Positions 13,798-35,231 of a stretch of DNA of 64,000 nucleotides are shown here, piece after piece. The notes beneath the pieces were generated by a model. That model made no database searches and was not told the origin of the DNA. It saw only the letters and a list, made by a program, of their open reading frames with translations. The position numbers and the translations under genes are program-made. This DNA comes from Nitrospirota bacterium (GTDB taxonomy: Bacteria; Nitrospirota; UBA9217): the NCBI GenBank assembly GCA_029858565.1, contig JAOUEV010000002.1, positions 102,428-166,427 of the forward strand, read 5' to 3'. How positions within the stretch are numbered: the first letter of the stretch is position 1; every line of letters starts with the position of its first letter.

Positions 13798-14163
13798 ACG
13801 GCTTTTTATTTCGTTTGAAATGCGCAATAGTTGTCGTACATAAGTCCCTATCGGACGGCAGATTAGGATGAACTTGGCTAGTTATTGTTGAGGAACAAAA
13901 TTATTAGGTGTTTTTTTTATTAAATTTCATGGCATTATAAAAAAATTGCTTTGAGCATTATAAGTCTAGCATGTTTGAAAACCAACAAGGCTTTTGAGCG
14001 ATAACACTCAAAATAAGTCATTGGTGTCTTGTAATATAAAGCTAATATATTGATATTTAAAGAATGCCTATGCTGGTATATGAATTGCAAAGTATATTAA
14101 TTGAAAAAGTAATGTATATAAGCTTGGAAATCTATTAAACATATTGATTTTTAAGGAGAAGCG
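13798..14163 (+). promoter_or_regulatory. ~366-bp strongly AT-rich intergenic island; presumed promoter/regulatory region of the multiheme cytochrome operon
   Basis: Read directly: long A/T runs (ttttttttattaaatttcatggcattataaaaaaattg...), in sharp contrast with the GC-rich flanks. Ends with GGAG 6 nt before the ATG at 14164. Confidence 0.5.
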
Positions 14164-14964
14164 ATGGCCACTTGCAATAGATTCACGAAAACCAATCCCT
14201 TTATCTCATTGCTTGCGCTTGGCTTGGTTTGTGTATGTTTTGCTGCTCCGGTTGATGCGCTGACAATCGTCGGTAGCAAGCATGATTTTACATCGACTGC
14301 CTCGGGCACGAACAATTTCGCGGATAATTTCTTTGTGCCGGATCCGGCAACGGGATTCCCAACGCCGATCGATCAGGTCTGCGTTTTCTGTCATACGCCT
14401 CACCATGCAGCGCTCGGCGCAGCCGCCCCTCTGTGGAACAGGACCTCGTCGCCTCCTGATGCGACGTATACATTCAAAATGTATACAAGCGAGTCCTTCA
14501 CGTATGGTCCTGTTGGCGGTCCCACGGGCATCAGCGCCTTGTGCATGAGCTGCCATGATGGTGTATCGTCTATCGCGGTGAGCACGCTTCTGAACCCCCC
14601 GGGAGACGCGACGCCCGATCAGGTCACTACATCGATGTCCTCCAATGGTGCAATAGGTGCGGTGTATAATGGTGATCCTCTTACGAATGGATGGGGCGCG
14701 AACCTTGGTAATATTGACCCCTTGTTCCCGGGAACCAAGATCATAGACCTGAGCAACGATCATCCGATTTCATTCGTCTATCCGACCAGTGCTTCGGGCA
14801 TCTATCCTTCTACTTCGATAGATACTCGTCTCCGTCTCTTTGGTGCTAGCAAGGACATGGTCGAGTGTGCGACCTGTCATTTGGTGCACGACAACCAGTA
14901 CGAGCCTTTCCTGGCAATGCCGAACAACGGCAGCCAGATGTGTCTATCCTGTCATCAAAAATAG
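14164..14964 (+). CDS. tetraheme c-type cytochrome (doubled-CXXCH type)
   Basis: Signal peptide, then four CXXCH motifs: CVFCHTPHH, CMSCHDG, CATCHLVHD and CLSCHQK. GSKHDF precedes the first motif, as in the Geobacter doubled-CXXCH domain. Confidence 0.85.
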   Translation: MATCNRFTKTNPFISLLALGLVCVCFAAPVDALTIVGSKHDFTSTASGTNNFADNFFVPDPATGFPTPIDQVCVFCHTPHHAALGAAAPLWNRTSSPPDATYTFKMYTSESFTYGPVGGPTGISALCMSCHDGVSSIAVSTLLNPPGDATPDQVTTSMSSNGAIGAVYNGDPLTNGWGANLGNIDPLFPGTKIIDLSNDHPISFVYPTSASGIYPSTSIDTRLRLFGASKDMVECATCHLVHDNQYEPFLAMPNNGSQMCLSCHQK

Positions 14965-15045
14965 ATCCGGAACTGCAGCCATCTGTAGTCGGAAATATTT
15001 ATGAAGAATTATTTAAGAAGAGTGAACGCGGCCTCGGAGGTGGGT

Positions 15046-17787
15046 ATGAAAACGGTGAAGATTTCGATCATTCTGATGATTGCCATCGTGGCAGTGGCCA
15101 GTGCTGCCTTCGCGGCCCCGGTCCGGATCGGGACCCTGGAGCAGAATATCTCGGACCCTGTGCGGGTGGCTTTGGATGCTCAGGGGAATATATATGTGAC
15201 CGAGGCACAGCGCGACCTCGTCCTGGTTTATACCAGTAAAGGTCAGCATAAGACTGGCCTTTCGGTTCCTCGACCGCTCGGTGTTGCGGTTGACGGGAAC
15301 GGAACGATTTATGTAAGTTCTGGAAATCAGAGGACCAAAAACCCGGTGTATGTATTCACCCCGGACTTTGTGAAAGCCGGATGCCTGGGTGGGGCATCAT
15401 GCGCGGAATTTGTAAAGCCCATCGATGTGGCTGTTGATGGAAAAGGCAATGTGTATGTCGTAGACAATGACCCTGATTATAGTGTGGTCAAGGTGTATGA
15501 CGGTGCAGGCTCACTTATCCGTACGATTGCCGGCAGTGGCGCATCGCGGTTGAATAAACCCATGAGTGTTGCCATCGACGATACAGCCGGGGAAATCATA
15601 ATTTCCGATCAGCCGGATGTGATTGTTGCTGGTCAAAAGGCGATTGGCGCACGGATCCAGGCTTTTGATGGATCTGGAATTGCTGTGCGGACGATTGGTC
15701 AGTATGGGATCGAGGTCGGTCAGTTCAAAGAAGCTACAGATATTGCCATTGATGCCAAGGGGCAGCTGTATGTTACTGACGGCGCTTTGGGTGTCACTAA
15801 TATTATCAATGCCTCCGACGGGAACATCGTCGGTATTCTTTATGACGCCGGCAAGCCTGGTTATAACCCTAACGGTGTTGTGGTAAGCAAAAATGGACTT
15901 GCGTATGTGGTCATGCAAAAAGGCGAAGGCAGCAAGGGCAGGATTGACATTTACGCTCTTGAAGGATATGTGACGATGGCGGCTGCGCCTGCAGCGCTGA
16001 TGTTCGAGGCTCGGCAGTTCTCGGGCAATCCTTCCGCTCAGACGGTATCGGTAAGCAACAGCGGCAGCGGCACTCTCAACTGGACGGCATCGAAGAGCCA
16101 GTCGTGGATCGTGCTGGGGCAGGATGCAGGTACGGCGGGACCGAATGGATCTTCCGGTCTTCCCGTTGGTATAGACATCTCCGCGTTGAAGGCGGGAATT
16201 TATACAGGCACTGTTGCGGTCGTATCGGATTTCGGCCAGACGGAGTCAGTCGGTGTTTCTGTGAATGTGCTGAATCCGCTGATCCTGAATATCAGCAAGA
16301 GCACGATGACATTTACTGCTAAGAAGGGCAAAACAGCGGCTGCCCAGTCTCTTGCAACAGGGATCGACAACGTCACCACGGCAACGGCGTGGAGCGCGAA
16401 GTCCGATTCAACGTGGCTTTCTGTAACACCGGCATCGGGAACTGCGACTGCCGCGTCTGCGGTTGCTGGTGCAAACGTAACGATCAACACCGCTGGCATG
16501 GGTGTTGGAACCTATAAGGGTGCTATCACGGTATCTGCCCCCGGAGCTATCGGAGATGGCAGTGCTGTTATGGTTATGCTTACGATAACCCCGACCACGA
16601 AGATCACCGTAAATACGAACAATGAAAATGCCAAGTTCTCGGTAAGCGGCCCGTCGACATACAATGGTAGCGGCTCATCATGGAGTGTGGAAGATGTTCC
16701 TGCGGGCGATTATAAGGTCAACTTTGAGCCTGTTGCCGGCTATCGCAAACCGAAGGCAGCGATGGGGGCTGTCCCGGCGGATGGCGAGGTTTCCTTCTCG
16801 GGAAATTATACGTCCTTCGCTGATATTGCTGCGCGGCGGAATATCCTTGTGGCCGGTGCTCTTGGCGTAAAAGCGCGTGATTCTGAGGTCAGTGTGTATA
16901 GCAATACGGGTGCTCTTTCGCAGGCAATTGATCTGTCAGCGAATTACGGTGCCAGCGTGGCGGTCGCCGATGTTGACAATGACGGCGCAGAAGAGATTAT
17001 TGTTAGTGCCGCAGAAAAGGGGAGCAATCCCGCGACGGTTACGGTTATGAAAGCTGACAGGACCGTACTGAACAGCTTCGTTCCTTTTGCGAATGCCAAT
17101 GCTGTTCGGGTCGCGGCAGGAGACATGGATGGAAATGGGTCTGCGGAAATTGTCGTCATCCCAGCGCCTACCAGAAACGGCGCTGCCGGGACCGCAGCAG
17201 TGTATACCTACGACAGTGCGAGCGCGAAGATGATCGAAGTCGCGGCAGTGACCATGTATAAGAAGACGTCAATAGTTGACGTTGCTGTCGCGGATATTAA
17301 TGGTGATGGAAAAGCGGAACTTTTAACACTAGCCGCGTTTGAAGGAAAATCAGCAGGAATGGTAAAAGCCTGGAGCGTGAGCGCTGCAAAGGGTGGTTGG
17401 TCAGCAGCCTTGATCAACGATATCACCATGAACGGTGAAATGATGGGCGCTGCAGTGGCCGGTGGCGATGTCGATGGAGACGGTGTAAGTGAGATTATTG
17501 TCGGTTCCGCGGCAGATGCGGGTGGTATGCTGACCATCATTAAAGGCGACGGAACTCAGACGAAGGTGAAGGTCTTTGGCAGGAAGGATGTGGCTGGTAT
17601 GACGCTGGCCGTTGCTGACCTCGATGGCGACGGTAAGGCTGATCTCGTTGCGGCGCCTGTGCTTGAGAGTGGGAATGCGAAGAAGGATGGTGCGATCGAG
17701 GTCCTGAATTCGAATGGCACCTTGATGTTCTCGATCGATGTCAAGGCGGATGGTGCGAATGTTGCCATCGGTGAACTTGGTCTCTAA
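15046..17787 (+). CDS. secreted NHL-repeat beta-propeller / Ig-like x2 / PEGA-like / FG-GAP beta-propeller protein
   Basis: Start at Met16 of the listed ORF, with GGAGG 5 nt upstream and a signal peptide MKTVKISIILMIAIVAVASAAFA. NHL-like repeats: PRPLGVAVDGNGTIYVS and PIDVAVDGKGNVYVVD. Two Ig/BACON-like domains. FG-GAP repeats: VADVDNDGAEEIIVS, AGDMDGNGSAEIVV, VADINGDGKAELL, GGDVDGDGVSEIIVG and VADLDGDGKADLV. Confidence 0.8.
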   Translation: MKTVKISIILMIAIVAVASAAFAAPVRIGTLEQNISDPVRVALDAQGNIYVTEAQRDLVLVYTSKGQHKTGLSVPRPLGVAVDGNGTIYVSSGNQRTKNPVYVFTPDFVKAGCLGGASCAEFVKPIDVAVDGKGNVYVVDNDPDYSVVKVYDGAGSLIRTIAGSGASRLNKPMSVAIDDTAGEIIISDQPDVIVAGQKAIGARIQAFDGSGIAVRTIGQYGIEVGQFKEATDIAIDAKGQLYVTDGALGVTNIINASDGNIVGILYDAGKPGYNPNGVVVSKNGLAYVVMQKGEGSKGRIDIYALEGYVTMAAAPAALMFEARQFSGNPSAQTVSVSNSGSGTLNWTASKSQSWIVLGQDAGTAGPNGSSGLPVGIDISALKAGIYTGTVAVVSDFGQTESVGVSVNVLNPLILNISKSTMTFTAKKGKTAAAQSLATGIDNVTTATAWSAKSDSTWLSVTPASGTATAASAVAGANVTINTAGMGVGTYKGAITVSAPGAIGDGSAVMVMLTITPTTKITVNTNNENAKFSVSGPSTYNGSGSSWSVEDVPAGDYKVNFEPVAGYRKPKAAMGAVPADGEVSFSGNYTSFADIAARRNILVAGALGVKARDSEVSVYSNTGALSQAIDLSANYGASVAVADVDNDGAEEIIVSAAEKGSNPATVTVMKADRTVLNSFVPFANANAVRVAAGDMDGNGSAEIVVIPAPTRNGAAGTAAVYTYDSASAKMIEVAAVTMYKKTSIVDVAVADINGDGKAELLTLAAFEGKSAGMVKAWSVSAAKGGWSAALINDITMNGEMMGAAVAGGDVDGDGVSEIIVGSAADAGGMLTIIKGDGTQTKVKVFGRKDVAGMTLAVADLDGDGKADLVAAPVLESGNAKKDGAIEVLNSNGTLMFSIDVKADGANVAIGELGL

Positions 17788-17865
17788 TTCATGATCGTGA
17801 CCAGCATGAACATGAATGGAATTAAAAGATTGATACGGCGTACTCTGCAAGAAGGAGCGGTGACT

Positions 17866-20800
17866 ATGAAGAAATCTACTCTACTTACGATTTCAATTCT
17901 GATTATGCTGTTCGGCATGCTGATTGCCGTGCGGGACGTCGCGGCACTCGATGCCCCGCATAACGCGAACGACGTATCTCGGTCGATCACCTGCTCCACG
18001 TGCCACGTTTCTCCATTGGGACCGACCCCGACGTGGAAAACAATCCCGACGACCACGGACAATACCTATACAAACAATCTTTGTACAAGCTGTCACGCGA
18101 GCGGCAAGCTCACGACCAGCAAGTATGAGGATATTAAGACCCACTCTGCGGCGAACACGGGAAGCACCCGGTGGGGCGGTGGCTGGACGGTTGAGTGTCG
18201 TGTCTGCCATCATGCCCATAACCAGGCGCAGCAGACCACGTTCTATTCAGATGCTAATAATAATGTGCTGACCGGTACGGTGGCGGCGCTGACGTCGTCG
18301 GTATCTGCGACCATGTCCACGCTTACTGCGTCCGCGGGGTCGATGGGAACCGATGGTTACGTTGGTTACCTTCTTATCCCGAATACCGCATATCCTACGA
18401 TCATGTATCGTGTTATAGCCAATGACGCGACGAAGTTTACCGTGAAAGGTGCTATTAACCTGGCTCGTACGGCAGTGGGAAAGACCTGGGCACTGCGCTA
18501 CGGCAAAATGGTGAAAACGCAAATTGCCTATACGAACCCGACTTCGGTGAATGCCTCGGTCAAGTTCTACAATAATGCAGGCAACAATTCCTTTGCAGAA
18601 ACCGCGAGCCCATCAACATCCCTTTGCATGGTCTGTCATACCCAGACCAAGCATTTCAAGAATGACGGAACATTTGAGACTGCAGGTCATCCGGCAGCTG
18701 TCGGAACGGCCTGCACTTCCTGCCATAAACATAATACGGGCTTCAAGGCAAGCGGATGTAATGGCTGTCACGGCCAGAGCGGATCGACCGGCGCGCCTCT
18801 TGTTGCCGGTGATCTTGTCTCGCCAGCAACCGGCCACGCCGAAGGCGCACATCTGCGGCATGCGGTGACCCTGTCTCTGAGTTGTGCTGTCTGTCACGCT
18901 GGAAATACCATGCCTGCGCTCGACAGCGAGATAACCATGTCGTTCAGCGACGCGGCAGCAGGTGGAGCATATCAGGGCACTGCTCTCAACGCTCCTTACA
19001 CCTATAGCGCCAATGTCACCCTGGGCGGCACGCAAACCTGTTCCTCTTTATATTGCCATAGCTCGGGTCAGAGTGCCACGGGTGGTTCGCTTGCCGGCGG
19101 AGACTACAAGTCAGTGAACTGGACAGGAGCCGGCCTGAACTGCGGCAGCTGCCACGTTGATATGGATGCAAGCGCATCGGCAACTGGCAGCCATATTAAG
19201 CACGCACAGGATAAGGCCATTGCTTGTGCGACCTGCCATGATGGATACACAGAAACGTCAACGGCCGCGGCAACGCACGCAAATGCCTCGATCAATCTGA
19301 GCTTCAGCGGTAGGGCTGCTGGCTCGACATACTCCCAGGGAAACTCCCATGCTGTGCAGAACGGATACGGCCAGTGTTCAACGAACGATTGCCATAGCAC
19401 CGGCCAGGGTTCCGATGGCAGTTCGTCCGGCATTACCTATGCGTCTCCGACGTGGGGCGGAACGGTGAATTGCAGCTCCTGCCACAAGAACATGGATGCT
19501 GATGCGACCGCACCGGGCAGCCATGTGAAGCACGCGCAGAGCGCGGCGATTGCCTGCGCCACCTGTCACAACGGATACACCGAGACCACCGCAGCCGTGG
19601 CAACCCATGACGACGGCACGGTGGACATGAGCTTCAGCGGTCCGGGAGACGGCACGTTCTACACCGGCGGTACGACGAGCGGCAACTACGCGCTCGGCGG
19701 CGGTTACGGTTCTTGCTACACCAGCTCCTGCCACAGCTCGGGCCAGTCCGCCACGGGTACGGCCTCGCCGCTGACCTATGGTTCACCGGTATGGGGCGGT
19801 ACCTTGGACTGCGGTTCCTGCCACACGAACATGGATACTGATGCGACCGCACCGGGCAGCCACGTGAAGCATGCCCAGAGCGCGGCCATCGCTTGCGCCT
19901 CCTGTCACAGCGGTTACACTGAGACCACGGTTGCGGTTGCAACGCATAATAACTCGACAGTCAACGTGACGATGGCGACCGGCTTCTACACCGGCGGCAC
20001 AACGAGCGGCAACAACGCGCTCGGCGGCGGCTATGGTTCCTGCTACACCAGCTCCTGCCACAGCTCGGGCCAGTCAGCCACGGGTACGGCCTCGCCGCTG
20101 ACCTATGGTTCTCCGGCATGGGGAGGTACACTGGACTGCGGCTCCTGCCATAAGAACATGGATACTGATGCGACCGCACCGGGCAGCCACGTGAAGCATA
20201 CCCAGAGCGCGGCCATCGCTTGCGCAACCTGTCACAACGGTTACACCGAGACCTCGGTTGCCGCGGCATCGCATAACAACGGCACGGTGGATATGAGCTT
20301 CAGCGGGACGGGTGCCGGGACGTTCTACAGCGGCGGCACAGTGAGCGGCGACAACGCGCTCGGCGGCGGCTACGGTTCCTGCTACACCAGCTCCTGCCAC
20401 AGCTCAGGCCAGTCAGCGACGGGTACGGCATCACCGTTGACCTACGGCTCTCCTGCGTGGGGCGGAGCGCTGGATTGCGGCTCCTGCCACAAGAACATGG
20501 ATACGGATGGAACTGCGCCGGGAAGCCACGTTGGCCATGCACAGACAGCGGCGATTGCGTGCGCAACCTGCCACAGCGGGTACACCGAGACGACGGTTGC
20601 GGCTGCAACGCATAATAACTCGACAGTCAACGTGACGATGTCGACCGGCTTCTACAGCGGCGGCACGGTTTCGGGTGACAATGCGCTGGGCGGCGGTTAT
20701 GGAACCTGTTTCACAACGAACTGCCATGGCTCATCCTCACCCGTCTGGGGCACGAACACCACGAATGCTTCCTGTACGAAGTGCCATGGTGTTTCCGGCG

Positions 20801-21747
20801 CAACCCCTGCGCAGTATACCGCGGATAACAATATAGCGGCGCCTGGATATGTTTCTGTCGCTCCGGTCGGTACCGGTCGCGCAACATCTGGTGCGACAGC
20901 TGCGACAGATCCGAAGGTCGGAGCTCATAACGCACACCTTAAGGGCGTGAGCAACTATTCGGATCCCATTGCCTGCAGCGCCTGCCACAATACGTCATCA
21001 GGGCACATGGATGGTTCCGGCACACTGACATTCAGCGGTTTGTCTACATCGAACGGCGCCGCTGCAAATTATAGCGCGCCGAATTGTTCAACAACCTACT
21101 GTCATTTCGGTAAATCGATCAATTTGTACTCGCCGGCAGTTTCGAGCGCTACAGTGACCTGGAATGATACGGCTTACCTGAGCGGCACACCGAGCATCGG
21201 CGGAGACTGCGCGAAGTGCCATCTCTCACCGCCTTCGGCAACAGGGACCCATGCAGGCTACAGCACCTTCACAGACTGCAACACCTGTCATCCTCATGTG
21301 AGCACAGACGGTACGTTCAACAACAAATCGCTGCATATCAACGGCGTAGTCGAAGCCGCAAGCGGTTGCGACGGCTGCCACGCATATCCGCCTGCAATAG
21401 GCGACGGCAAGGCGTATAAGGGTTCCGCGCTGCTCGGTAAAGGAGCGCATACATCCCATGTCAACTATCTCCTCCTGAGGACCGGATTGACCCTTAGCGC
21501 TAAGGGTGATACTTATACCGGTGCAACGGTTGCGGCGATCTGCGGCGTTTGTCACAACACGTCAGCCGATGCCTTCCATAAGAATGGCAATGATGTCCGT
21601 GACCTCCTGATCCCATCGTCTTACCTCTTTGGTACGGGGACGCCGACATATAACGGGAATCCCGCGACTACGACCAATAAGAACTGCTCGAATGTCAGCT
21701 GCCATTTCAATGTAACTCCGCTGTGGCAGCAGACCGCGGGTCAGTAA
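17866..21747 (+). CDS. giant multiheme c-type cytochrome (~31 heme-binding motifs: 23 CXXCH + 8 CX4CH; Geobacter-type CX4CH...CXXCH repeat domain)
   Basis: Start at Met26 of the listed ORF, with AAGGAG 8 nt upstream and signal peptide MKKSTLLTISILIMLFGMLIAV. Motifs counted by eye include CSTCH, CTSCH, CRVCH, CMVCH, CSSLYCH, CGSCH, CATCH, CYTSSCH x3, CFTTNCH, CSTTYCH and CSNVSCH. Triheme module CX4CH-CXXCH-CXXCH repeated about six times. Confidence 0.9.
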   Translation: MKKSTLLTISILIMLFGMLIAVRDVAALDAPHNANDVSRSITCSTCHVSPLGPTPTWKTIPTTTDNTYTNNLCTSCHASGKLTTSKYEDIKTHSAANTGSTRWGGGWTVECRVCHHAHNQAQQTTFYSDANNNVLTGTVAALTSSVSATMSTLTASAGSMGTDGYVGYLLIPNTAYPTIMYRVIANDATKFTVKGAINLARTAVGKTWALRYGKMVKTQIAYTNPTSVNASVKFYNNAGNNSFAETASPSTSLCMVCHTQTKHFKNDGTFETAGHPAAVGTACTSCHKHNTGFKASGCNGCHGQSGSTGAPLVAGDLVSPATGHAEGAHLRHAVTLSLSCAVCHAGNTMPALDSEITMSFSDAAAGGAYQGTALNAPYTYSANVTLGGTQTCSSLYCHSSGQSATGGSLAGGDYKSVNWTGAGLNCGSCHVDMDASASATGSHIKHAQDKAIACATCHDGYTETSTAAATHANASINLSFSGRAAGSTYSQGNSHAVQNGYGQCSTNDCHSTGQGSDGSSSGITYASPTWGGTVNCSSCHKNMDADATAPGSHVKHAQSAAIACATCHNGYTETTAAVATHDDGTVDMSFSGPGDGTFYTGGTTSGNYALGGGYGSCYTSSCHSSGQSATGTASPLTYGSPVWGGTLDCGSCHTNMDTDATAPGSHVKHAQSAAIACASCHSGYTETTVAVATHNNSTVNVTMATGFYTGGTTSGNNALGGGYGSCYTSSCHSSGQSATGTASPLTYGSPAWGGTLDCGSCHKNMDTDATAPGSHVKHTQSAAIACATCHNGYTETSVAAASHNNGTVDMSFSGTGAGTFYSGGTVSGDNALGGGYGSCYTSSCHSSGQSATGTASPLTYGSPAWGGALDCGSCHKNMDTDGTAPGSHVGHAQTAAIACATCHSGYTETTVAAATHNNSTVNVTMSTGFYSGGTVSGDNALGGGYGTCFTTNCHGSSSPVWGTNTTNASCTKCHGVSGATPAQYTADNNIAAPGYVSVAPVGTGRATSGATAATDPKVGAHNAHLKGVSNYSDPIACSACHNTSSGHMDGSGTLTFSGLSTSNGAAANYSAPNCSTTYCHFGKSINLYSPAVSSATVTWNDTAYLSGTPSIGGDCAKCHLSPPSATGTHAGYSTFTDCNTCHPHVSTDGTFNNKSLHINGVVEAASGCDGCHAYPPAIGDGKAYKGSALLGKGAHTSHVNYLLLRTGLTLSAKGDTYTGATVAAICGVCHNTSADAFHKNGNDVRDLLIPSSYLFGTGTPTYNGNPATTTNKNCSNVSCHFNVTPLWQQTAGQ
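19040..21030 (+). repeat. tandem ~327-339-bp DNA repeats (about six units; four near-identical between ~19376 and 20706) encoding triheme cytochrome modules
   Basis: tgctacaccagctcctgccacagctc recurs at ~19714, 20041 and 20380. cataataactcgacagtcaacgtgacgatg recurs exactly ~660 bp apart. Long and short unit variants alternate, suggesting a ~660-bp higher-order repeat. Confidence 0.8.
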
Positions 21748-21881
21748 GGGAGGGTGTGGACGTGTATACCGTACTGAGGTATAATAGCCAGCCTGCATGC
21801 AAGGCTGCAGTTCATAATCAGAAACGCTCAGCCGCATCCGTGGAATCGACCGGCAGAGCTCTTACAGAAGGCGAGGTACTT

Positions 21882-24425
21882 ATGATGAAGAAAGCTTGTA
21901 ACGATAGCGCGGTAAGCCGGCTCACATGGCTGGGGCTTGCGGTAGTCCTGATCATGCTGATCTCCGCATTCGTTGCTGTACCTCAGGCAACAGCCGGAAC
22001 GTATACGGTAGATACGTGCGGCGATTGCCACGCATACTCCACGGGAACGTTCACGGACGGTTCGGCCCGGAATAATCCGGCCGGCGCCTTCCCGGGCTCG
22101 CATCAACAGCATGTGACGACCTACCAGATGGCCTGCACGGTCTGTCACATCAACAACGGAGCTAATTTTGCCCATCGGAACGGCAATGTTGATATAAATG
22201 CCTCGATCAGCGGAGGCACATACAGCAAAGGTTCATTCTCCCAGGTTAATACGACATCTCTGGGTCGGTGCACTAACGTCTCTTGCCATAGCAACGGAAC
22301 CCCGCTGAACGGTACAGCAACATTCGCAACAGCGACCTGGGGTTCTCCGGCAACAGGTGCTTGCGGAACCTGCCACGGCGTCCTGGCTTCCAGCGCTCCG
22401 ACCTCAACGCATCACAGCAAACACGTGGGAGCTGCTGCGGGATATCAAAACGCCTGCGGTTGGTGCCATAGCAGCACGGTGAACATGACAGCGAATTCAA
22501 CCGTTCAGGCGACGGTCACTTCAACTACGCTGCATGTCAACGGAATCAAGAACGTCTCCTTTGAAACCACCACGAACGCCGGGGCGAACGCCTACGGAAG
22601 CGGGCAGGCCTATAGCTGCACCAACCTCTACTGTCATAGCCAGGGGAACACGTTCACATCACCCTATACAGCGCCGAACACGACAGCGCTCTGGACATTG
22701 GCTGCAGGTTCGCTGAACTGCAACAGCTGCCATGGTTCGACCGTAGCAACAACCACTCGCGGTAATGGCAAGCCTGAGTACGCCAACGGCACGCCGAAGA
22801 AGAACAGCCATGCGGGCCATTTCCCGTGGAACACGCTCCAGTCCTGCCAGATCTGCCATTCGGCAACGACCACGGACGGGGTGAGCGTTACGAACAAAGC
22901 GAACCATGTGAAGAAGTCCTACAACGTGGGTTCCTACACGGGAGGCGGTGCCTGGAACACCTTGGCAAACTTCACCTATACCTATAATGCCAATGGCAGC
23001 ACCTGTAATACCAACCAGTGCCATGCTGGGCTGAACGCACAGTGGGGCTCGACAGGAGCCGGCTCCGGCAGCGAATGGAACTGCATTACCTGCCACTCCA
23101 GCTCGTTCAAGAAGTTCCTCGGCACGGGAACGATCCGGCAGGTTGTCGGTACGACCAACGCCGCTGATTTCAACATGTCAACGATCGGGAACGGCGCAGG
23201 TTCGCGTCACCTGTACGGTGCTTCGACAATCGTGAAATGGGACTGCATCATCTGTCACGAGGAAGGTCAGGCAACGGGCGCTCCTGGAAGGGTTGACTGG
23301 CAGAACCATAATGACTTGGGCGGCTTGATCCATCTGCGGAACGTGGACACGATCGATCCTGCGAACTCGGGCTGGGCGATTAACAACAAGTCCTGGACGA
23401 CGACCGATTATCAGAGTATGGACGAGTTCTGCGTCTCTTGCCATGATTCCAACGGGGCAAGCGCGATCGCGGTGAATGCTGCGAACAACGGACTCTTCAC
23501 CGGCACTGCTGCCTGGAACACCTATCGTGCAGGCTGGAAATCAATGGCAGGAACTTTCCCCGGCAGGGCAGCCCTGGCACCGTTCAACTCCACGGACTGG
23601 CGTTCTGGTTATCTGGTTGCATCCACCTCGTCAGTAGGCGCCGGCGAGGGCAGAGCAAAGATCACTGACGTGAAGACCCAATTCTACGCAGGTACTGCAG
23701 GCAACTGGGCGACAACGAACTACAACGGCAATCCGTCGCAGCACGCGGTGCTCGGTACCCGGTACGGCCGGGCCTGGAACACCTGGACCGCCGCAGCCTG
23801 GTCGAGCTACTTCATGAAGAAGTCTCGTGCGAACATCAACGCCATGCGTGAGACCGCGCTACTCTCATGCGCTGACTGTCACGTGCTCGATGCTCCAGGT
23901 GTGGGCGGCAATGCTCATAGCGGTACAGTGAAATACATGCTGTCTACAGTCACTAGTGATGGCATCTGCACAAAGTGTCATTCGACAACTGCCTACGCTG
24001 CGGCGAGCGCTATATCCCGGTGGAATCACAGCTACTCAAGAGGCGGTTACAATGCCTATGGTCTTTCCAACGCAGCAGGTACGGGTTCTCAGCTCGCCTG
24101 TATGATGTGCCATGCTGGCTGGCAGATAGAGTCAACGGTCTCGAGACAGAGGAGCTACGGCGGCATCCATGGATCCTGGACGACCTTCTATCCCATGAGC
24201 ACGGTAGGAAGTGGAAACCTGACGACCTACCGGTTCTTCCCCGGGACCTGGAGAAAGCATTCATATAGTGCTGATAACCAGTGGGGCTCCATGACAGCTT
24301 CGACCTGTTACTTCGGGGCTACAACCGATAATAGCGGATTTGCGAGCTGTACGTCACATGGAAGCGCGACCGGCAGAACTGGAACGACGTACACGCCGAC
24401 GTACACGCGTCCGGTCAAGTACTAA
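21882..24425 (+). CDS. multiheme c-type cytochrome (~15 heme motifs: 12 CXXCH + 3 CX4CH)
   Basis: Start at MMKKACNDSAVSRLTWLGLAVVLIML (Met54 of the listed ORF), with GAGG upstream. Motifs CGDCH, CTVCH, CTNVSCH, CGTCH, CGWCH, CTNLYCH, CNSCH, CQICH, CNTNQCH, CITCH, CIICH, CVSCH, CADCH, CTKCH and CMMCH. Confidence 0.85.
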   Translation: MMKKACNDSAVSRLTWLGLAVVLIMLISAFVAVPQATAGTYTVDTCGDCHAYSTGTFTDGSARNNPAGAFPGSHQQHVTTYQMACTVCHINNGANFAHRNGNVDINASISGGTYSKGSFSQVNTTSLGRCTNVSCHSNGTPLNGTATFATATWGSPATGACGTCHGVLASSAPTSTHHSKHVGAAAGYQNACGWCHSSTVNMTANSTVQATVTSTTLHVNGIKNVSFETTTNAGANAYGSGQAYSCTNLYCHSQGNTFTSPYTAPNTTALWTLAAGSLNCNSCHGSTVATTTRGNGKPEYANGTPKKNSHAGHFPWNTLQSCQICHSATTTDGVSVTNKANHVKKSYNVGSYTGGGAWNTLANFTYTYNANGSTCNTNQCHAGLNAQWGSTGAGSGSEWNCITCHSSSFKKFLGTGTIRQVVGTTNAADFNMSTIGNGAGSRHLYGASTIVKWDCIICHEEGQATGAPGRVDWQNHNDLGGLIHLRNVDTIDPANSGWAINNKSWTTTDYQSMDEFCVSCHDSNGASAIAVNAANNGLFTGTAAWNTYRAGWKSMAGTFPGRAALAPFNSTDWRSGYLVASTSSVGAGEGRAKITDVKTQFYAGTAGNWATTNYNGNPSQHAVLGTRYGRAWNTWTAAAWSSYFMKKSRANINAMRETALLSCADCHVLDAPGVGGNAHSGTVKYMLSTVTSDGICTKCHSTTAYAAASAISRWNHSYSRGGYNAYGLSNAAGTGSQLACMMCHAGWQIESTVSRQRSYGGIHGSWTTFYPMSTVGSGNLTTYRFFPGTWRKHSYSADNQWGSMTASTCYFGATTDNSGFASCTSHGSATGRTGTTYTPTYTRPVKY

Positions 24426-24456
24426 CAGCTTCGAGGTCTTGAAGGCAACAAATGTA

Positions 24457-24496
24457 GCGGAGGCTCATATGAGCCTCCGCTTTTTTTTTGTTTTTT
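24457..24496 (+). terminator. rho-independent terminator of the cytochrome operon
   Basis: Perfect hairpin gcggaggctca-ta-tgagcctccgc followed by a run of 9 T, then gtttttt, ~30 nt after the stop codon. Confidence 0.85.
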
Positions 24497-25109: not shown

Positions 25110-26348
25110 CTACGGCAATGACGGTGAAGAAAGCAGGTAACTGTAGAGAAAAGCAGGGACCATGCGTCCGGTGACGAATGGATACAGATAAAGCCCCCAG
25201 ACTGCAGTGAGGCAAAAGAGAATACTAAAGACCTTTCGGGATCGGCCAGAGCCCATGGTCAAAGATGCAAGCGAGTACGCGATCAGTAGATAGGCAAATG
25301 GCAGCACCGCAAAGGCTGAATAGAGGAACACCGGACGCTTCACCAGGATGAACTGTAAGTACGATGAAGCAAAGAGCAGCAAGACCAGGGGGAGGCTCCG
25401 CTCTCTGCGTTGATACGCATAATACAGCCCATAGACCGCAGCAGGTATGGTCAGGAGCCAGATCGGCGGATTGCTCATGAAGGTGAAGAACTTTCCCCAC
25501 CCGGCATTCACGAAGATCGGTTCGCCGTGTATCAGCGGCTTGACGAACCAGTGCCAGGGAACTGATGGCGAAGAACTAAAGAATTTATCAACAAAGGAAT
25601 CAAGCGCCATGGCCTGGAGGGTATGGTAGGCGTCCTTTTGCCATATGATGAAGTCGAGTAGGTTGGACCCCCGTTTGAACCAGGGATACATCAGGAGTAA
25701 GTAAACGCCTCCAGCGACCACGCCTGACGACGCAAGGTAAGTTGAGCTGAGGATTCGGTCTTGCCCGTCACGGTTCGACCAGATCCGGAGGAGAAGATAG
25801 GCGAAGACAGCGAGAGTCGGCAGGACAAAATACCATTTGCCGGAAAGCGCCAGTCCGAGGGGGATCCCTGCCCATGCCAGTGCGCGCTCGTTCCCCTGCA
25901 TATACAGGGCGATCGCGTAGACAAAGAGCAGGAAGAAGAAGATCGGAATTATTTCCATGAAGTTGGTGCGAGATAGGGAAATATGGAAAGGCTCGATGGC
26001 AAAGAAAAGGCCGGAGAGCCAGGCGACGCGCCGGTCCTCGAAGAGTCGCAGGGCAAGCAGCAAGAGCATCAGCACGGAGAGGCTACCGAAGAGGACGTTC
26101 GGCAGCCGCCAGCCATAGGCATTGTTTCCAAAGAGTTTGATGCCGATCGCGGTCACATGGAAGTTCAAGGGCGGATGGAGCCAGACGACCGGGGCGTAGA
26201 GGCCGTTCTTCTGGAAGTTCTCTGCAGCGGGGATGAACTGGAATTCATCGCCGATGACGTATGGCGGTTCGCCGACGCTCCAGACGCGAAGGGCAAAGGC
26301 CAAGAGAAACAGCAGCAGCACGGTATTCCGATTGTTAAAACGTTCCAT
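25110..26348 (-). CDS. GT-C glycosyltransferase family 39, protein O-mannosyltransferase (PMT)-like
   Basis: Loop-1 signature DEFQFIPAAENF...HPPLNFHVTAIGIKLFGNNAYGWRLPNVLFGSLSVLMLLLLALRLF matches the bacterial Pmt pattern DE..F..A....HPPL.K..A.G..LFG.N..GWR...A.FG. Polytopic, 412 aa. Confidence 0.75.
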   Translation of the reverse strand: MERFNNRNTVLLLFLLAFALRVWSVGEPPYVIGDEFQFIPAAENFQKNGLYAPVVWLHPPLNFHVTAIGIKLFGNNAYGWRLPNVLFGSLSVLMLLLLALRLFEDRRVAWLSGLFFAIEPFHISLSRTNFMEIIPIFFFLLFVYAIALYMQGNERALAWAGIPLGLALSGKWYFVLPTLAVFAYLLLRIWSNRDGQDRILSSTYLASSGVVAGGVYLLLMYPWFKRGSNLLDFIIWQKDAYHTLQAMALDSFVDKFFSSSPSVPWHWFVKPLIHGEPIFVNAGWGKFFTFMSNPPIWLLTIPAAVYGLYYAYQRRERSLPLVLLLFASSYLQFILVKRPVFLYSAFAVLPFAYLLIAYSLASLTMGSGRSRKVFSILFCLTAVWGLYLYPFVTGRMVPAFLYSYLLSSPSLP

Positions 26349-27285
26349 CAGCCTTCCTCAGGTCTGAGATGAATTCGACGGCATGGGTGCCGGAGACGGT
26401 CAGAAGGTCGCAGGTGAGCTTTCCGCGCAGGAGCGGGAGGAGCATCCCGCGCTCCTCTGCCGAGACGCTGTCAGCCTGGAGATTGACGATCACCGGCTCT
26501 TTCAGTCCGGGGAAGTCCTGGAAGCGCATGATCCTGACCGAGATCCCTTCCGCAATGGTCATCCTGAAGCTTCCGCCTGAAGATTCCACGGTCTTGCTGT
26601 TCCCGAGCACTGAGGCGACCGTCTCCCACGCAGTGTCCGAAATGAGGTGATAGACCTTGCGGACCATGCCCGACCGGACGGCCTGGTGCACGTAGTTCCC
26701 GGCTACGATGTGGTACTCCGGCCGTTTTGGACAGTGGTCCGGGTAGGAGTGTTCGAGGATGAGCCTGTTGAGCCGCGCGTAGTCGTCAGCGCTGTTGCGT
26801 GGTATCGGGACCGAGAACGAGTCTGTCAGGGCCAGGTAGCCGGCAAGGCTCGTGATCTGCCCGGATGGATCGGGAAGCCCTTTTCTCAGGAACAGGGGAT
26901 AAAGGCTGAATCGCCTCAGGACGTCAGTGTTCAAGCCCTTGATCGTACAGGAGAAGGTGTCCTGTACGCTTCCCTGCAGGTCCGTCCTGAGCGCATCGCA
27001 GAGCCGGTTCAGGCTTGCCGTATCTCTGAATTCAGTGTCCTGGAACTCATCGGTCCTGTCCTCGATGTCAGCATTCAGATGCCTGTCTATGAGCACGAGC
27101 GTCCTGCCGTGCATCCCCTGCTCGCGCCAGACAGCAAAAGCATCTTGGGGAACGTTCACCTGCCTGACCAGCGGGGAGGGCAGGATCGTCCGGTGCGATG
27201 CGCCGTATTGCTGCAGGAACAGCAGGACACTGATGCAGAACAGGAGCGATATTGCTATGACCGCGATCTTCGATTCCTTGCTCAT
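26335..27285 (-). CDS. membrane-anchored protein of an uncharacterised GT39-associated family (member 1)
   Basis: N-terminal TM anchor. Shares EPVIVN(L/V).(A/D) ... VSG(T/S) blocks with the proteins at 38801..39508 and 41120..42562. Overlaps the downstream GT39 gene by 14 nt. Confidence 0.5.
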   Translation of the reverse strand: MSKESKIAVIAISLLFCISVLLFLQQYGASHRTILPSPLVRQVNVPQDAFAVWREQGMHGRTLVLIDRHLNADIEDRTDEFQDTEFRDTASLNRLCDALRTDLQGSVQDTFSCTIKGLNTDVLRRFSLYPLFLRKGLPDPSGQITSLAGYLALTDSFSVPIPRNSADDYARLNRLILEHSYPDHCPKRPEYHIVAGNYVHQAVRSGMVRKVYHLISDTAWETVASVLGNSKTVESSGGSFRMTIAEGISVRIMRFQDFPGLKEPVIVNLQADSVSAEERGMLLPLLRGKLTCDLLTVSGTHAVEFISDLRKADGTF

Positions 27286-28697
27286 CTTGATGTCCCGAGT
27301 GAGACCGCTGCCCTTGCGTACGCGGCCAGCTCGTTCATGGACCGCACCTTGGAGAGCCGATTGAGGATATATCCGGGCCGCAGGTAGTACTTCCTGACGG
27401 CCTTGTGATGGAGACCGTCAATCTCCTGCCTGGTCAGAGTGTGGCCTTTGACGACCGCGGAACCGTAAGCATATTCGAACAGGCAGCTGTCAGCCGGGTC
27501 CTTGGTTCCGAACAGTCCGTTCTCGACCGCGTACCGGAAGAATGCCGTGCCCGGGAAGGGCGTGGCAACGAAGAAGTTGGCGAAGTCGGTCCTCAGGTCA
27601 CGGGCCAGTCGCATGGTCTGCTCCGCGGTCCCGGTCGTCTCCCAGGGGAGGCCGGTCATGTAGTAGGCAAAGGAAGCGATGCCCGTGCCGCGGATGAGCC
27701 GCACGGAATCCCTGATCTGCTCCACGGAAACCTTCTTGCCGATCTTGTCGAGGATCTCCTGGCTGCCGCTCTCGATGCCGAGGCTGATGAGCGAGCAGCC
27801 CGCCTCCTTCATGAGCGTGAGCGTTCCCTGGTTGATGTTGTCCGCCCGCATGTTCGAGGCCCAGGTGAACCGCAGGCCCGATGCACGGATTGCCTGGCAA
27901 AGCCGCCTCACCCACCCGTCGTCGAAGTTGAAGACATCGGACCAGAAGATGAAGTCCTCGATTCCGTAGGTCCGCAAGCAGTGCCGGACCTCGTCGAGGA
28001 TGTTCTCCGGGCTACGCATCCTGACCTTGCGGCCCGAGACCGGCGTTGCCAGGCAGAAAAAACAGTTGTACGGGCAGCCGCGGGAGCACTTGATGATGCC
28101 CTGGGGCCTGCCCTTGTCCGGCCGGACATAGCGACGGTTATCGATGAGGTGGCGTGCAGGGAACGCCAGGGCATCGAGATCGCTCTGGAACGGCGCATCA
28201 TCGTTCCGGAGGACCTCTTCGCCCCGTCTCCAGGTTATGCCGTGAACCGTTTCCAGGGACTCCCCGGAGACGATCCTTTTGATCAGCGGCTCGGGCTCAC
28301 TGCGCAGCAGAATGTCCACCTCGGGATGGGCCCGCAGGACCTCACGGTCAAAGACCAGGAAATGAGCTCCCTTGGCGATGATCGTCAGGCCCGGCAGGGC
28401 CTTTTTCGCCTCCCTGCATACGGTCAGGTCGGCCAGGAGCGTTGGTGTCGTCGTGCTCAAAACCAGAAGGTCCGGCTTATATTCACGCAGGATAGCTGTA
28501 AATGCGGCCATATCAAGTCTGCTTGCCGGACAGTCCAGGACCTGGCACTCAGCCCCGGCAGCCTCTGCGGACGCCGCCATGTACAGGAGGTCTGTGGGCG
28601 GAAGGGTCGGCGCGATCGGAACTTTACCGGTCGGGACCTGGCATCTGTCCTCGCGGTTAATTAGCCCGGTAGGCGGATATGCAAAGAGAACCTTCAT
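27282..28697 (-). CDS. B12-binding (class B) radical SAM enzyme
   Basis: N-terminal cobalamin-binding-like domain (LVLSTTTPTL). Radical SAM cluster CSRGCPYNCFFC. ~470 aa. Confidence 0.85.
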   Translation of the reverse strand: MKVLFAYPPTGLINREDRCQVPTGKVPIAPTLPPTDLLYMAASAEAAGAECQVLDCPASRLDMAAFTAILREYKPDLLVLSTTTPTLLADLTVCREAKKALPGLTIIAKGAHFLVFDREVLRAHPEVDILLRSEPEPLIKRIVSGESLETVHGITWRRGEEVLRNDDAPFQSDLDALAFPARHLIDNRRYVRPDKGRPQGIIKCSRGCPYNCFFCLATPVSGRKVRMRSPENILDEVRHCLRTYGIEDFIFWSDVFNFDDGWVRRLCQAIRASGLRFTWASNMRADNINQGTLTLMKEAGCSLISLGIESGSQEILDKIGKKVSVEQIRDSVRLIRGTGIASFAYYMTGLPWETTGTAEQTMRLARDLRTDFANFFVATPFPGTAFFRYAVENGLFGTKDPADSCLFEYAYGSAVVKGHTLTRQEIDGLHHKAVRKYYLRPGYILNRLSKVRSMNELAAYARAAVSLGTSR

Positions 28698-28700
28698 AGC

Positions 28701-30119
28701 TCAATCCTGGATCGGAAGGCGGCCCACGATACGAGACCGTTCCCGCATGGTCTCCGCGTCTATGTTGCCGGCCAAATAGTCAGCGACGAGGAAACCTTTG
28801 CCGATAGCATTGTGTGCGTTGTTGTAATCGCTTGAGGCCTCTCTTCCACAGAGGACTATGCCGGAATTTTCAAAGAAAGCCTCGATCCTGTCCTGGGCCT
28901 GATATCGCTCATGGTTCAGCACGGGATATGCACCCGGGCAGCGAACGTTGAACGCCCGGAGGATATCGTTCCTGCCGAACCATCCGAGCTCGAGGACAGC
29001 CTCGGTAAGCACCTGGTCGAACTGCTCATTTGACATAGTATCATAACGGCTGCCGTGATCGCAAATAACATCGCACAGGATGATCGCCTGCCCATCAGGG
29101 CAGAGTTCGGGTGAGAACTGGTCGAATGAAGATAGTCTGTTGAAAATGATATGTTCTTCCGGGAATATGATCACCCTCGCCGGGAGCTGGAAATTCCTGA
29201 CCGCAAGGATGCCGAGCCGCATGGTTCTGGACGGGAAAGCTTCGGCGAGCGGCATGATGGGCGAGGCAAGCGGGGCGGCAAGGTATCCGATCAATGTCCT
29301 GTTGGATATCGTGCTGACCATACGATCGGCGACCAGGTGGTGCTCGCGGCCGTTCTTTTCGTAGGAAATGTGGAAGGGGCCTTTGATCGTCTCTGCCTCG
29401 ATCCGCCTGATGTTCGCGGTGAGCTCGATCACCTGCCCCTGTGACCGGACGAATTCTGCCATCGCATCGGGGATGCGGCCGAATCCCTGCCTTGGGTAAT
29501 AGAACATGCTGACGCCGGGAAGCGACCGACCCCTCAAAAATCGCTTCAGCATTGTGCCAATCGTCGGAAGTTCGAAGCGGATCCGGGCAAAATCCTCATG
29601 CAGGTCTTTTGTTCCCCAGACCTTCCTGATCATCGGAAAGGCGACCATTTCGCTGAAAGGCCTGCCGAAGGAATGCAGGATGATGTCCTCAAAGGTAGTG
29701 TTATCAGTCCGGCGGGAGCTGAGCATTCTGAGAACGGCCTGTGAGCGGGCACGCAGCCAGCCTGCGGCGAAGACCGTGGTAAATTTCAGGCTTGATGCAC
29801 TGCACATGTTCCGGAGTTTCGGGGGATAGGAGTATACGGTCCCGTTAAAGTAGACCCCGTGCTCATTCTCCAGTTCGAGGAGGTCAATTCCCGGCAGTCC
29901 GCGGATCTTCTCCACGATGCCCGGGAGCTGCGGTGAGAGGCGATGCGGGCCGATATCGAATCGGAGACCGTCGTGCTCCAGTGTTCGTGAAAGCCCTCCG
30001 ACTGCCGGCGCTGCCTCAAGCAGGGTCACCTCGAGGTTCTTGCGCCCGCATAGGCCCCAGGCAACGGAGAGGCCGGAGCATCCAGCACCAATGATAACGA
30101 TCCGTGTCTTGTGCATCAT
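28701..30119 (-). CDS. FAD-dependent oxidoreductase (amine-oxidase/PPOX/UDP-galactopyranose-mutase-like fold)
   Basis: Dinucleotide-binding motif IVIIGAGCSGLSVA...LLEAAPAVGG at the N-terminus. GPHRLSP resembles the UGM GPHIF segment. Precise subfamily not resolved. Confidence 0.7.
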   Translation of the reverse strand: MMHKTRIVIIGAGCSGLSVAWGLCGRKNLEVTLLEAAPAVGGLSRTLEHDGLRFDIGPHRLSPQLPGIVEKIRGLPGIDLLELENEHGVYFNGTVYSYPPKLRNMCSASSLKFTTVFAAGWLRARSQAVLRMLSSRRTDNTTFEDIILHSFGRPFSEMVAFPMIRKVWGTKDLHEDFARIRFELPTIGTMLKRFLRGRSLPGVSMFYYPRQGFGRIPDAMAEFVRSQGQVIELTANIRRIEAETIKGPFHISYEKNGREHHLVADRMVSTISNRTLIGYLAAPLASPIMPLAEAFPSRTMRLGILAVRNFQLPARVIIFPEEHIIFNRLSSFDQFSPELCPDGQAIILCDVICDHGSRYDTMSNEQFDQVLTEAVLELGWFGRNDILRAFNVRCPGAYPVLNHERYQAQDRIEAFFENSGIVLCGREASSDYNNAHNAIGKGFLVADYLAGNIDAETMRERSRIVGRLPIQD

Positions 30120-32745: not shown

Positions 32746-32847
32746 GAATATCCTTGGACAATCGAACCATTATAACACGCTGAGACGCTTTCGGAAAAGG
32801 ATAGAAAGGCCGTCCCCGCGAGGAAGCTTGAGACGAGGAAATTAGCC

Positions 32848-33555
32848 TTGACGGACACCGTTCATGAACGGTACAATCAACCACGCCTGCGCGCCCGGAC
32901 GTTCCTGCGCCGGAGCAGAGGCGACCTGCCGGGACAGAAGGGCACCAGGAACGGAATGGAAGACCAGGAACGGACAGCAGGGATCCACGGTGACGAGCGC
33001 GCTGGAGCACAGGCTGTTCTCCCTGCCGTGCTGGGGCTGCTGCTTGCTCTTATCGTCTCCTTCGGCGCTCATGGCGGATATGAACATTTCCGTTTCTATG
33101 CCCACGGGTATCTGCGGCAGCAAGAGACAGCAAATGTTGAGGCCACCATCAAGCTTTTCAGCAGCTCTGTTGCGGGTTTCTACGCCACAGGATATACCGT
33201 CGGTCTCAAACAGTTCCCTGCCGACAACATGGTCAAACGACGGATCTTCCAGGACATCAGGAACTGGGAGGAGTCAGGCAAGTTCTTTGTCATGGACCGG
33301 GACCGGATCGCGGTGAGGAACGTGGAGTTCCTCGCGCCGGACATGGCGGTGGCGCTGGTCGATGAGACCTGGTTCAGCGTATTTCAGAACCGGTCGACCC
33401 GCAGGCCGATCTCGGAAAAACAGGCGAACATCCTCACGGTCCGCTATTACCTGAAGAAGAAGTGGGGCCGGTGGATCATTTTCGAATACGAGGTTTTCCC
33501 GCAGGGGAAGCCGCTCCCGCCTGTCCCTGTTGACATGGTGCTGAAATGGGAATAG
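32848..33555 (+). CDS. hypothetical membrane-anchored protein
   Basis: Single TM helix (AVLPAVLGLLLALIVSFGA) followed by a ~150-aa soluble domain. Start is ambiguous (32848 or Met37 at 32956). No recognisable motif. Confidence 0.45.
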   Translation: MTDTVHERYNQPRLRARTFLRRSRGDLPGQKGTRNGMEDQERTAGIHGDERAGAQAVLPAVLGLLLALIVSFGAHGGYEHFRFYAHGYLRQQETANVEATIKLFSSSVAGFYATGYTVGLKQFPADNMVKRRIFQDIRNWEESGKFFVMDRDRIAVRNVEFLAPDMAVALVDETWFSVFQNRSTRRPISEKQANILTVRYYLKKKWGRWIIFEYEVFPQGKPLPPVPVDMVLKWE

Positions 33556-34589: not shown

Positions 34590-34635
34590 CGACGCGGAAA
34601 AGGGAAGGGAGCGGCTGTCCAGGGTAGTCCGAAAA

Positions 34636-34680: not shown

Positions 34681-34687
34681 GCCGGTC

Positions 34688-35113: not shown

Positions 35114-35231
35114 ACGTGCCCCCTCATGTGCTCTCTGAAAGATCGTCCATCGTACGGAATAAGCATATCATACTGTTTCTAAACTGTCAAAACCACGGTC
35201 CTGACGCGGTCCTGAACGGGCATGGCGGTTT

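Follow-up and report, generated by a model that had tools for sequence, protein, structure and literature searches.

A Nitrospirota gene block joining an OmcE-like tetraheme cytochrome, a double-propeller protein and two giant multiheme cytochromes as a candidate variant of the OmcE-type nanowire cluster

We analysed 64,000 nucleotides of a Nitrospirota bacterium (assembly GCA_029858565.1, contig JAOUEV010000002.1, positions 102,428 to 166,427), referred to here as the window, and focused on a block of four genes, A to D, encoded on the forward strand between window positions 14164 and 24425. An earlier note on this DNA, made from the letters alone, had proposed the block as a candidate extracellular electron-transfer module of an undescribed kind. 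The first half of that proposal is supported; the second is not. Gene A is, by its sequence, a clear full-length homologue of the nanowire cytochrome OmcE that keeps all heme-ligating residues, which points to a lineage-specific variant of a described nanowire cluster rather than to an undescribed system. On balance, and with modest confidence, we read the block as a variant, in Nitrospirota, of the gene cluster for OmcE-type cytochrome nanowires; everything beyond the homology itself is what we infer from the sequence.

The homology of gene A was assessed by a sequence search of the PDB, in which its only significant matches were OmcE-type proteins: the Geobacter sulfurreducens OmcE filament (7tfs_A, E=1.1e-22, query residues 33-266 against chain residues 24-232) and 9yuq_N (E=3.5e-19, in two stretches). 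Entry 9YUQ is a 218-aa multiheme cytochrome with 16 chains, which we take to be the bundled OmcE nanowire of Desulfuromonas soudanensis WTL (bioRxiv 10.1101/2025.10.22.684050), as size and chain number agree with that preprint, the text of which gave no entry code. The protein also matched PF09699 (Paired_CXXCH_1), the doubled-CXXCH family that the earlier note had expected. Its four CXXCH motifs, at residues 73, 127, 235 and 260 of 266, and four histidines (H40, H80, H200 and H242) are invariant across alignments of 16 and 45 sequences, one of which takes in G. sulfurreducens OmcE. OmcE homologues of five phyla, including Nitrospirota, conserve four CXXCH motifs and four further histidines (bioRxiv 10.1101/2025.10.22.684050), and in OmcE a distal histidine of the next subunit ligates one heme (PMC12307469). 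The predicted gene A protein has the eight histidines needed for four bis-His hemes, including those of the inter-subunit ligation scheme. The earlier note had recognised no filament-cytochrome signature in the block, which, given the OmcE homology of gene A, was wrong. A neighbour-joining tree of 80 OmcE-like proteins was star-like, with A weakly grouped with its counterparts in L003, L004 and L067 (our designations for loci of the scan described below) near the canonical OmcE clade; it is not relied on here. Gene A also carries a ninth histidine for its four hemes, H81, which adjoins the conserved H80 and is not kept in homologues. A filament stopper with nine histidines and four hemes has been speculated upon (bioRxiv 10.1101/2025.10.22.684050); judging by the position of H81, the resemblance is probably coincidental.

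Gene A is identical to MDH4161400.1 of a Nitrospirota metagenome-assembled genome (MAG) and is carried by a metagenomic contig of 305 kb. The synteny search that the earlier note had suggested was run, and the A-B(-C-D) block was found in eight loci, two of which (L001 and L002) are the window's own sequence; all named sources are Nitrospirota. The full A-B-C-D order is present in L003, L004 and L086, while L085 (A-B) and L084 (A-B-C) end at a contig edge, and in L025 gene B and a 13-heme C-like gene are divergent from a 5-heme A-like gene. Across these recurring contigs, identity is ~42-51% for A and ~29-50% for B, and several of them share the neighbourhood of the window (alanine dehydrogenase, DUF4337, LysM, NtrY-like kinase, rhodanese, Ogg and a 98-aa open reading frame (ORF)). 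One further MAG has A and B homologues with consecutive accessions. Full-length homologues of B fall into ~39 clusters at 90% identity, two of them with an organism name, both Nitrospirota, and a profile search of 1.8 billion representatives gave at least 50 clusters at 50% identity with a single full-length match. This recurrence, together with the cluster counts of B, indicates that the module is no isolated case but represents a diverse family that recurs in uncultured organisms.

To the same setting belongs the linkage between OmcE-like genes and propellers. A scan for OmcE-like genes, using one genome per species, found >588 loci, of which 79 were kept. An NHL propeller gene near the OmcE-like gene is the rule: it was present in 64 of the 79 kept loci and in 49 of the 52 that span 15 kb or more. 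In L004, a PD40/Tricorn-type propeller protein is encoded 3' of the block (19860-20768); its N-terminus is lipobox-like (…VFSAGCKKK), giving another propeller lipoprotein linked to the module.

The published definition of the omcE cluster includes a beta-propeller lipoprotein, a large outer-membrane barrel and two multiheme cytochromes, with an optional downstream glycosylation cluster (GT2/4/39, TPR, methyltransferases) (bioRxiv 10.1101/2025.10.22.684050). The earlier note had seen no place for a propeller protein between cytochromes in the described Mtr/Pcc/OmcS/OmcZ systems; NHL propellers do belong to this omcE definition and are known from Desulfovibrio ferrophilus as well (PMC5815863). 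In the Geobacter loci L039 and L054, the order is the published one: purD, resB, ccsB, 10-heme and 8-heme cytochromes, NHL lipoprotein, OmcE, a 749-806-aa barrel-position protein and glycosyltransferases. The window holds homologues of the L039 genes ccsB, resB, NHL, OmcE, three GT39-like/TPR proteins and GT2, and none of the barrel-position protein or of the two small cytochromes. The block resembles the Geobacter cluster in its full-length homologue of the G. sulfurreducens tetraheme subunit (GSU0618; 7TFS) with the same heme-ligand positions, in an adjacent NHL propeller gene (B starts ~36-37 bp past A), in the number (two) of further multiheme cytochromes, and in a glycosylation island and resB/ccsB nearby. 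It differs in that the window lacks a large outer-membrane barrel, in that the propeller of B is fused and has no lipobox, whereas the L039 NHL homologue has one (LMAGC), and in that C and D are 31- and 15-heme proteins of the TIGR01904 type that are not homologous to the 10- and 8-heme pair. The genes also stand in another order and in another genomic setting, and the host belongs to Nitrospirota, not Desulfuromonadia. With the D. soudanensis bundle (9YUQ), the block shares a homologous tetraheme subunit; as bundle-forming loops are not kept even among close OmcE homologues (bioRxiv 10.1101/2025.10.22.684050), we make no statement on bundling for gene A. GSU2885-2887 was considered as a possible G. 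sulfurreducens counterpart of the module and was dropped after a literature search gave nothing.

Gene B encodes the unusual double-propeller protein that the earlier note had described. Pfam detected NHL (2.7e-14), two BACON_2 stretches and FG-GAP (8.4e-20); the PEGA domain that had also been proposed was not detected by Pfam. An AlphaFold2 (AF2) model from 38 orthologues, with a predicted local distance difference test score (pLDDT) of 88.2, is all-beta, with an N-terminal propeller at ~25-305, three beta-sandwich domains at ~310-590, the third of which (~519-590) is seen in the model, and a C-terminal propeller at ~598-913. Foldseek aligned the N-terminal domain with the six-bladed NHL propellers of TRIM2/3 at a TM-score normalised to target length of 0.82-0.84, and the translation of the C-terminal part contains the D-x-D/N-x-D/N-G calcium-type loops of FG-GAP repeats. 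B is thus one fused gene with two different propellers, in contrast to the two separate propeller genes of the omcE cluster definition. Among the scanned loci, the FG-GAP fusion is limited to L001-L004, L025 and L084-L086, mostly Nitrospirota. What is odd about B is its fusion to Ig-like domains and an FG-GAP propeller, along with the missing lipobox, and not the presence of a propeller.

The two giant cytochromes, C and D, match TIGR01904 as the earlier note had anticipated, with 155.2 bits (2.8e-46, 7 stretches) for C and 60.1 bits (1.3e-16, 2 stretches) for D, both above the NCBIfam cut-off of 27 bits. Their family of CxxxxCH/CxxCH-domain proteins is uncharacterised, and its named-organism matches lie in Nitrospirota, Geobacteraceae and other Desulfobacterota. 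Every cysteine of C falls in a heme motif, and the protein consists of 5-6 tandem tri-heme modules of ~110 aa each, visible in the DNA as ~339-bp tandem repeats (window 19435-20619). A second (ENA) assembly of the same contig (L001 13703-17257) has one 109-aa tri-heme module fewer, that is, 28 against 31 hemes; C otherwise differs by a single mismatch, and the DNA of A, B and D is identical. The exact heme count of C is therefore assembly-dependent, and the difference is either a repeat collapse in assembly or real copy-number variation. NHL repeats and CxxxxCH/CxxCH multiheme domains also occur within single proteins (P0293; L010 775-4293), and such fusions support a direct functional link between propeller and cytochrome.

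Giant cytochromes accompany OmcE-like genes outside the block as well. In three Geobacteraceae/Desulfobacterota MAGs (L006 7435-13849, L027 7157-13326 and L011 6789-20558), a gene for a 253-268-aa OmcE-like paralogue is followed by 1-3 cytochromes of 20-26 hemes matching C or D, and an 800-990-aa secreted protein carries several Ig-like domains and NHL/six-bladed-propeller signatures, which are weak in L006 and L011. Like the window, these loci lack a barrel; they differ in that the propeller protein lies 5' of the OmcE-like gene, has no FG-GAP and has other Ig-like types (Glucodextran_B, Big_13). This second cluster type, with its giant cytochromes, therefore spans two phyla. Our literature search found no paper describing a cluster type of OmcE-like, NHL-Ig and giant CxxxxCH cytochrome genes.

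Several findings weigh against the nanowire reading. A hidden Markov model (HMM) built from 32 barrel-position proteins of related loci, which recovers 43 of the 79 loci, finds nothing in any reading frame of the 64 kb window at E≤10. Gene B is not a lipoprotein: its signal peptide ends in ASAAFA, directly before AP, and the protein has just two internal cysteines, so there is no lipobox. C and D have no phmmer match to the 10- and 8-heme cytochromes of L039 and are 3-4 times larger. The AF2 model of gene A, computed without hemes from the 45-sequence alignment, reached a pLDDT of 54.7 and was unusable, so it was not fold-searched, although a low value is expected for a heme-packed fold modelled without its hemes. 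The OmcE-like family is also very large (1490 proteins at E≤1e-5, and >588 genome loci), only a few of its members are known to polymerise, and polymerisation of gene A is predicted from homology only, no filament having been observed.

These points leave room for a chain that does not polymerise, in which A would serve as a soluble tetraheme shuttle in the periplasm, C and D would be heme capacitors or terminal reductases, located in the periplasm or at the cell surface, and B would be a generic surface or adhesion protein, with no nanowire at all. The size of the OmcE-like family, most of it uncharacterised, agrees with this explanation, as do the absence of an export barrel from the window and the fact that many OmcE-like members are domains of 11-heme proteins rather than stand-alone subunits. 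However, A keeps all eight ligating histidines where two filament-forming OmcE proteins have them, the close adjacency of A and B recurs from locus to locus, and the glycosylation and maturation context of OmcE is found in the window too. We thus regard a non-polymerising chain as unlikely, albeit the most serious competitor of the OmcE-type cluster.

The family of the missing barrel has no Pfam model, and we call it a beta-barrel on the basis of bioRxiv 10.1101/2025.10.22.684050 and of gene position. Its HMM had no match in L001-L004, L025, L085 or L086, and Pfam scans, together with the inspection of unannotated ORFs, revealed nothing barrel-like among the other ORFs of the window. The statement of the earlier note that the window has no porin thus stands, yet its reading as a barrel-free system is weakened by three loci in which similar modules lie beside barrel modules. 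In L084 (280-12187), a barrel-family gene, a SurA-like peptidyl-prolyl isomerase (PPIase) gene, an NHL gene and an OmcE-like gene with a 7-heme gene are followed, on the same strand, by A-like, B-like and C-like genes. In L067, the A-like gene, which comes with an NHL-Ig gene and a 12-heme C-like gene, has an OmcE-like gene and a barrel 5.5 kb upstream of it. In L010, a 15-heme C-like protein is encoded within a barrel-containing cluster. Each of the three has an A-like gene and a C- or D-like giant cytochrome directly beside the barrel-containing module. The simplest reading is that modules of the window type are accessory to a barrel module that may lie elsewhere in the genome, the barrel probably being supplied in trans.

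Alternatively, a nanowire or conduit could form independently of any barrel, with B replacing both the propeller lipoproteins and the barrel as anchor or export platform, or with export by another route such as type II secretion. This would agree with the lack of a barrel-family gene within 10 kb of the module in L003, L004, L025 and L086 and anywhere in the 64-kb window, with the restriction of the FG-GAP fusion to this group of loci, and with the diversity of the fused B family (at least 50 clusters at 50% identity). But propellers are soluble folds, no membrane-spanning element is predicted in B, and the direct adjacency of modules to barrel modules in L084, L067 and L010 suggests dependence on them. 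We consider this route doubtful, behind a non-polymerising chain in probability, and give the same low credence to its specific form, an OmcE-type heme wire without a dedicated barrel, which would be assembled and anchored on B and would have the 31- and 15-heme proteins as its base.

Membership in a characterised system (MtrCAB, PccABCD/OmbB-OmaB-OmcB, ExtABCD, OmcS/osc or OmcZ/OzpA) is extremely improbable and, on the NCBIfam scores and the PDB searches of C and D, effectively refuted. It could appeal only to weak sub-threshold matches to the Mtrc-MtrF_II-IV_dom, DmsE and OmcA/MtrC families, and the NCBIfam scores were far below cut-off (26 bits against 192 for DmsE; 20 against 209 for OmcA/MtrC). 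The PDB searches with C and D gave no sequence relative at E≤1, even though the PDB presumably contains OmcS, OmcZ and MtrC. Pfam scans of the window gave no porin-family match and no quinol-dehydrogenase gene, the latter as the earlier note had also stated, and the window contains no OmcS-like hexaheme protein, no OmcZ-like octaheme protein, no subtilisin-type OzpA and, in the window scans, no peptidase family. A, C and D have no lipobox and so lack the lipoprotein feature of the outer cytochromes of porin-cytochrome systems. Homology over the full length to the Mtr, Pcc, OmcS or OmcZ/OzpA systems is absent from the block.

Two further systems resemble the block by gene arrangement. The outer-membrane cytochrome clusters of D. 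ferrophilus IS5 contain NHL beta-propeller proteins (Deng et al. 2018, PMC5815863), proposed to stabilise a surface cytochrome complex (PMC5815863). They share with the block NHL genes among multiheme cytochrome genes; the propellers are not described there as fused to a second propeller (PMC5815863). The omcS-companion (osc) cluster of G. sulfurreducens (Shen et al. 2025, as summarised in PMC13194489) combines a nanowire subunit with proposed secretion and folding factors and with OscI (GSU2495) and OscJ (GSU2494), both listed as periplasmic. The likeness is a nanowire subunit gene clustered with further cytochromes, and the difference is that the subunit is the hexaheme OmcS and that the window has no OscEFG-like genes or PPIase. 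We take GSU2495 to carry ~26 hemes. The SurA-like PPIase of L084 recalls OscH, the folding factor proposed for the osc cluster (PMC13194489).

The features of the block and of the rest of the window are listed in Table 1.

Table 1. Block genes, flanking signals and other features, in window coordinates
Feature	Position	Strand	Basis or remark
Putative promoter region, AT-rich intergenic leader	13798..14163	+	GC content, ribosome-binding site
Gene A, OmcE-family tetraheme c-type cytochrome	14164..14964	+	266 aa; candidate nanowire subunit
Gene B, secreted protein with NHL propeller, three beta-sandwich (BACON/Ig-like) domains and FG-GAP propeller	15001..17787	+	Non-lipoprotein
Gene C, 31-heme CxxxxCH/CxxCH-domain cytochrome	17791..21747	+	Motif count, HMM
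Gene D, 15-heme CxxxxCH/CxxCH-domain cytochrome	21723..24425	+	Motif count, HMM
Intrinsic terminator	24456..24490	+	11-bp stem with 8 GC pairs, then T9
Modification island, minus-strand part	25110..41000	-	Pfam; probably associated with the block, as judged by context
GT39/PMT genes	25110-26348, 37551-38819	-	Pfam
B12-radical-SAM genes	27282-28697, 30116-31582	-	Pfam
Amine oxidase and two SGNH genes	within 25110..41000	-	Pfam
TPR protein	35232-37505	-	Pfam
resB/ccsB, system II cytochrome c maturation	42555..44872	+	Pfam; homologous to resB/ccsB flanking Geobacter omcE in L039
Three membrane glycosyltransferase-like proteins with TPR	44850-46907, 47040-49016, 50004-51983	+	Homology, Pfam
GT2 glycosyltransferase	59368..60132	+	Pfam; homologue of the GT2 downstream of omcE in L039

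ORF calls place the four genes in one direction, and by inspection all N-termini read as Sec signal peptides without a lipobox, in line with the four co-directional genes for secreted proteins of the earlier note. The likely starts, read from the translations, are M16 for B (15046, giving 913 aa), M26 for C (17866, 1293 aa) and M54 for D (21882, 847 aa), each preceding a signal-peptide-like hydrophobic stretch; the lengths given earlier (914, 1294 and 848 aa) agree with these. The genes are spaced by 36, 3-78 and ~135 bp, varying with the choice of start codon. Motif counts on the translations also reproduced the 50 heme sites reported before, with four CXXCH in A, 23 CXXCH and 8 CX4CH in C, 12 and 3 in D, and zero heme motifs in B.

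The leader is 365 bp long, with a GC content of 0.45-0.48 against ~0.58 in the flanks, and a strong ribosome-binding site (AAGGAGA, 14153-14159) lies upstream of gene A. A strong, GC-rich hairpin (24456-24481) follows gene D by 31 bp. The AT-rich island and the terminator of the earlier note are thus both present. Sigma-70-like matches numbered 14 against 8.8 ± 3.4 in shuffles, which is not clearly above expectation, so we do not make a promoter claim. Rfam gave zero matches in the entire window and the leader, hence no riboswitch. A single transcript for A-B-C-D is plausible from this layout. Upstream, an insert (8284-13797) with two MacB/FtsX-like permeases, an ABC ATPase, an FtrD-like membrane iron-sulfur protein and a ResB-like gene sits between conserved neighbours (rhodanese, Ogg and the 98-aa ORF) and gene A, and is missing from the syntenic loci L003, L004 and L086.

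The modification island and the heme-attachment genes lie downstream of the block. The three GT39-like/TPR proteins are full-length homologues (E 1e-17 to 7e-32) of proteins encoded after omcE in the Geobacter loci L039 and L054, and Pfam detected several more TPR proteins and at least seven radical-SAM genes in the rest of the window. Between 15 and 70 glycosylation genes have been described after omcE (bioRxiv 10.1101/2025.10.22.684050). The content of the island fits these published clusters, and we infer from this its association with the block. Two Pfam-less paralogues (26335-27285 and 38801-39508, both on the minus strand; pairwise E=2e-5) each adjoin a GT39/PMT gene on the same strand, and the resulting pairs resemble a glycosylation unit of two genes that is present twice. 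Short membrane proteins, each of ~346 aa, are encoded at 12757-13797 and 33546-34589 (plus strand); they are weakly similar to each other and to the periplasmic part of ResB (42555-44036), with pairwise E of 1e-5 and 1e-7. One of them is encoded directly upstream of gene A. As a speculation, these proteins might be extra heme-attachment factors, for example for CX4CH sites. The ORFs at 39400-40638 (+), 54028-55713 (-), 61256-62647 (-) and 62644-63528 (-) were rejected as Arg/Pro-rich antisense artefacts and not genes.

The locus scan also returned another recurring module, found in L005, L008, L013, L017, L018, L022, L028, L031, L032, L041, L046 and ~30 more loci of many phyla (among them Gammaproteobacteria, Acidobacteriota, Planctomycetota, Verrucomicrobiota, Bacteroidota and one archaeal MAG). 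It consists, in this order, of an OmcE-like tetraheme gene, small triheme genes, a gene for a 580-670-aa barrel-family protein, an NHL lipoprotein gene and an ~11-heme cytochrome gene, the N-terminal part of that cytochrome being OmcE-like. A cytochrome of this type, with an OmcE-like N-terminus and at least 9 hemes, is present in 42 of the 79 loci.

If the block is an OmcE-type cluster, the following mechanism may be proposed. Subunits of A would polymerise head-to-tail, one distal histidine ligating a heme of the neighbour, to give an insulated heme wire. B would act as a periplasmic or surface scaffold for assembly and anchoring, while C and D might pass on or hold electrons on the way between carriers in the periplasm and the filament or its targets. 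The hemes would be attached by resB/ccsB, and the island of GT39/TPR, GT2 and radical-SAM genes would decorate the Ser/Thr/Gly/Asn-rich proteins of the block. The barrel required for export would most likely come from a canonical barrel-containing module at another place in the genome. Whether electrons flow outward, for reduction, or inward, by uptake, is not readable from sequence.

How cells export and anchor cytochrome nanowires, and how these are charged with electrons, is an open question in the field (PMC12307469; bioRxiv 10.1101/2025.10.22.684050). In the cluster type described here, the subunit and the NHL propeller are retained, giant cytochromes take the place of the small ones, a second propeller is fused to the first and there is no barrel in cis. 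It can therefore be viewed as a natural experiment in which the OmcE-like gene and the NHL propeller are always linked, while the other parts are exchangeable. A published filter demanding a barrel in the cluster would have missed these loci. Should a wire without a barrel prove true, it would represent a second, barrel-independent route of cytochrome nanowire biogenesis. On the reading of the block as an OmcE-type cluster, candidate nanowire producers extend to uncultured Nitrospirota.

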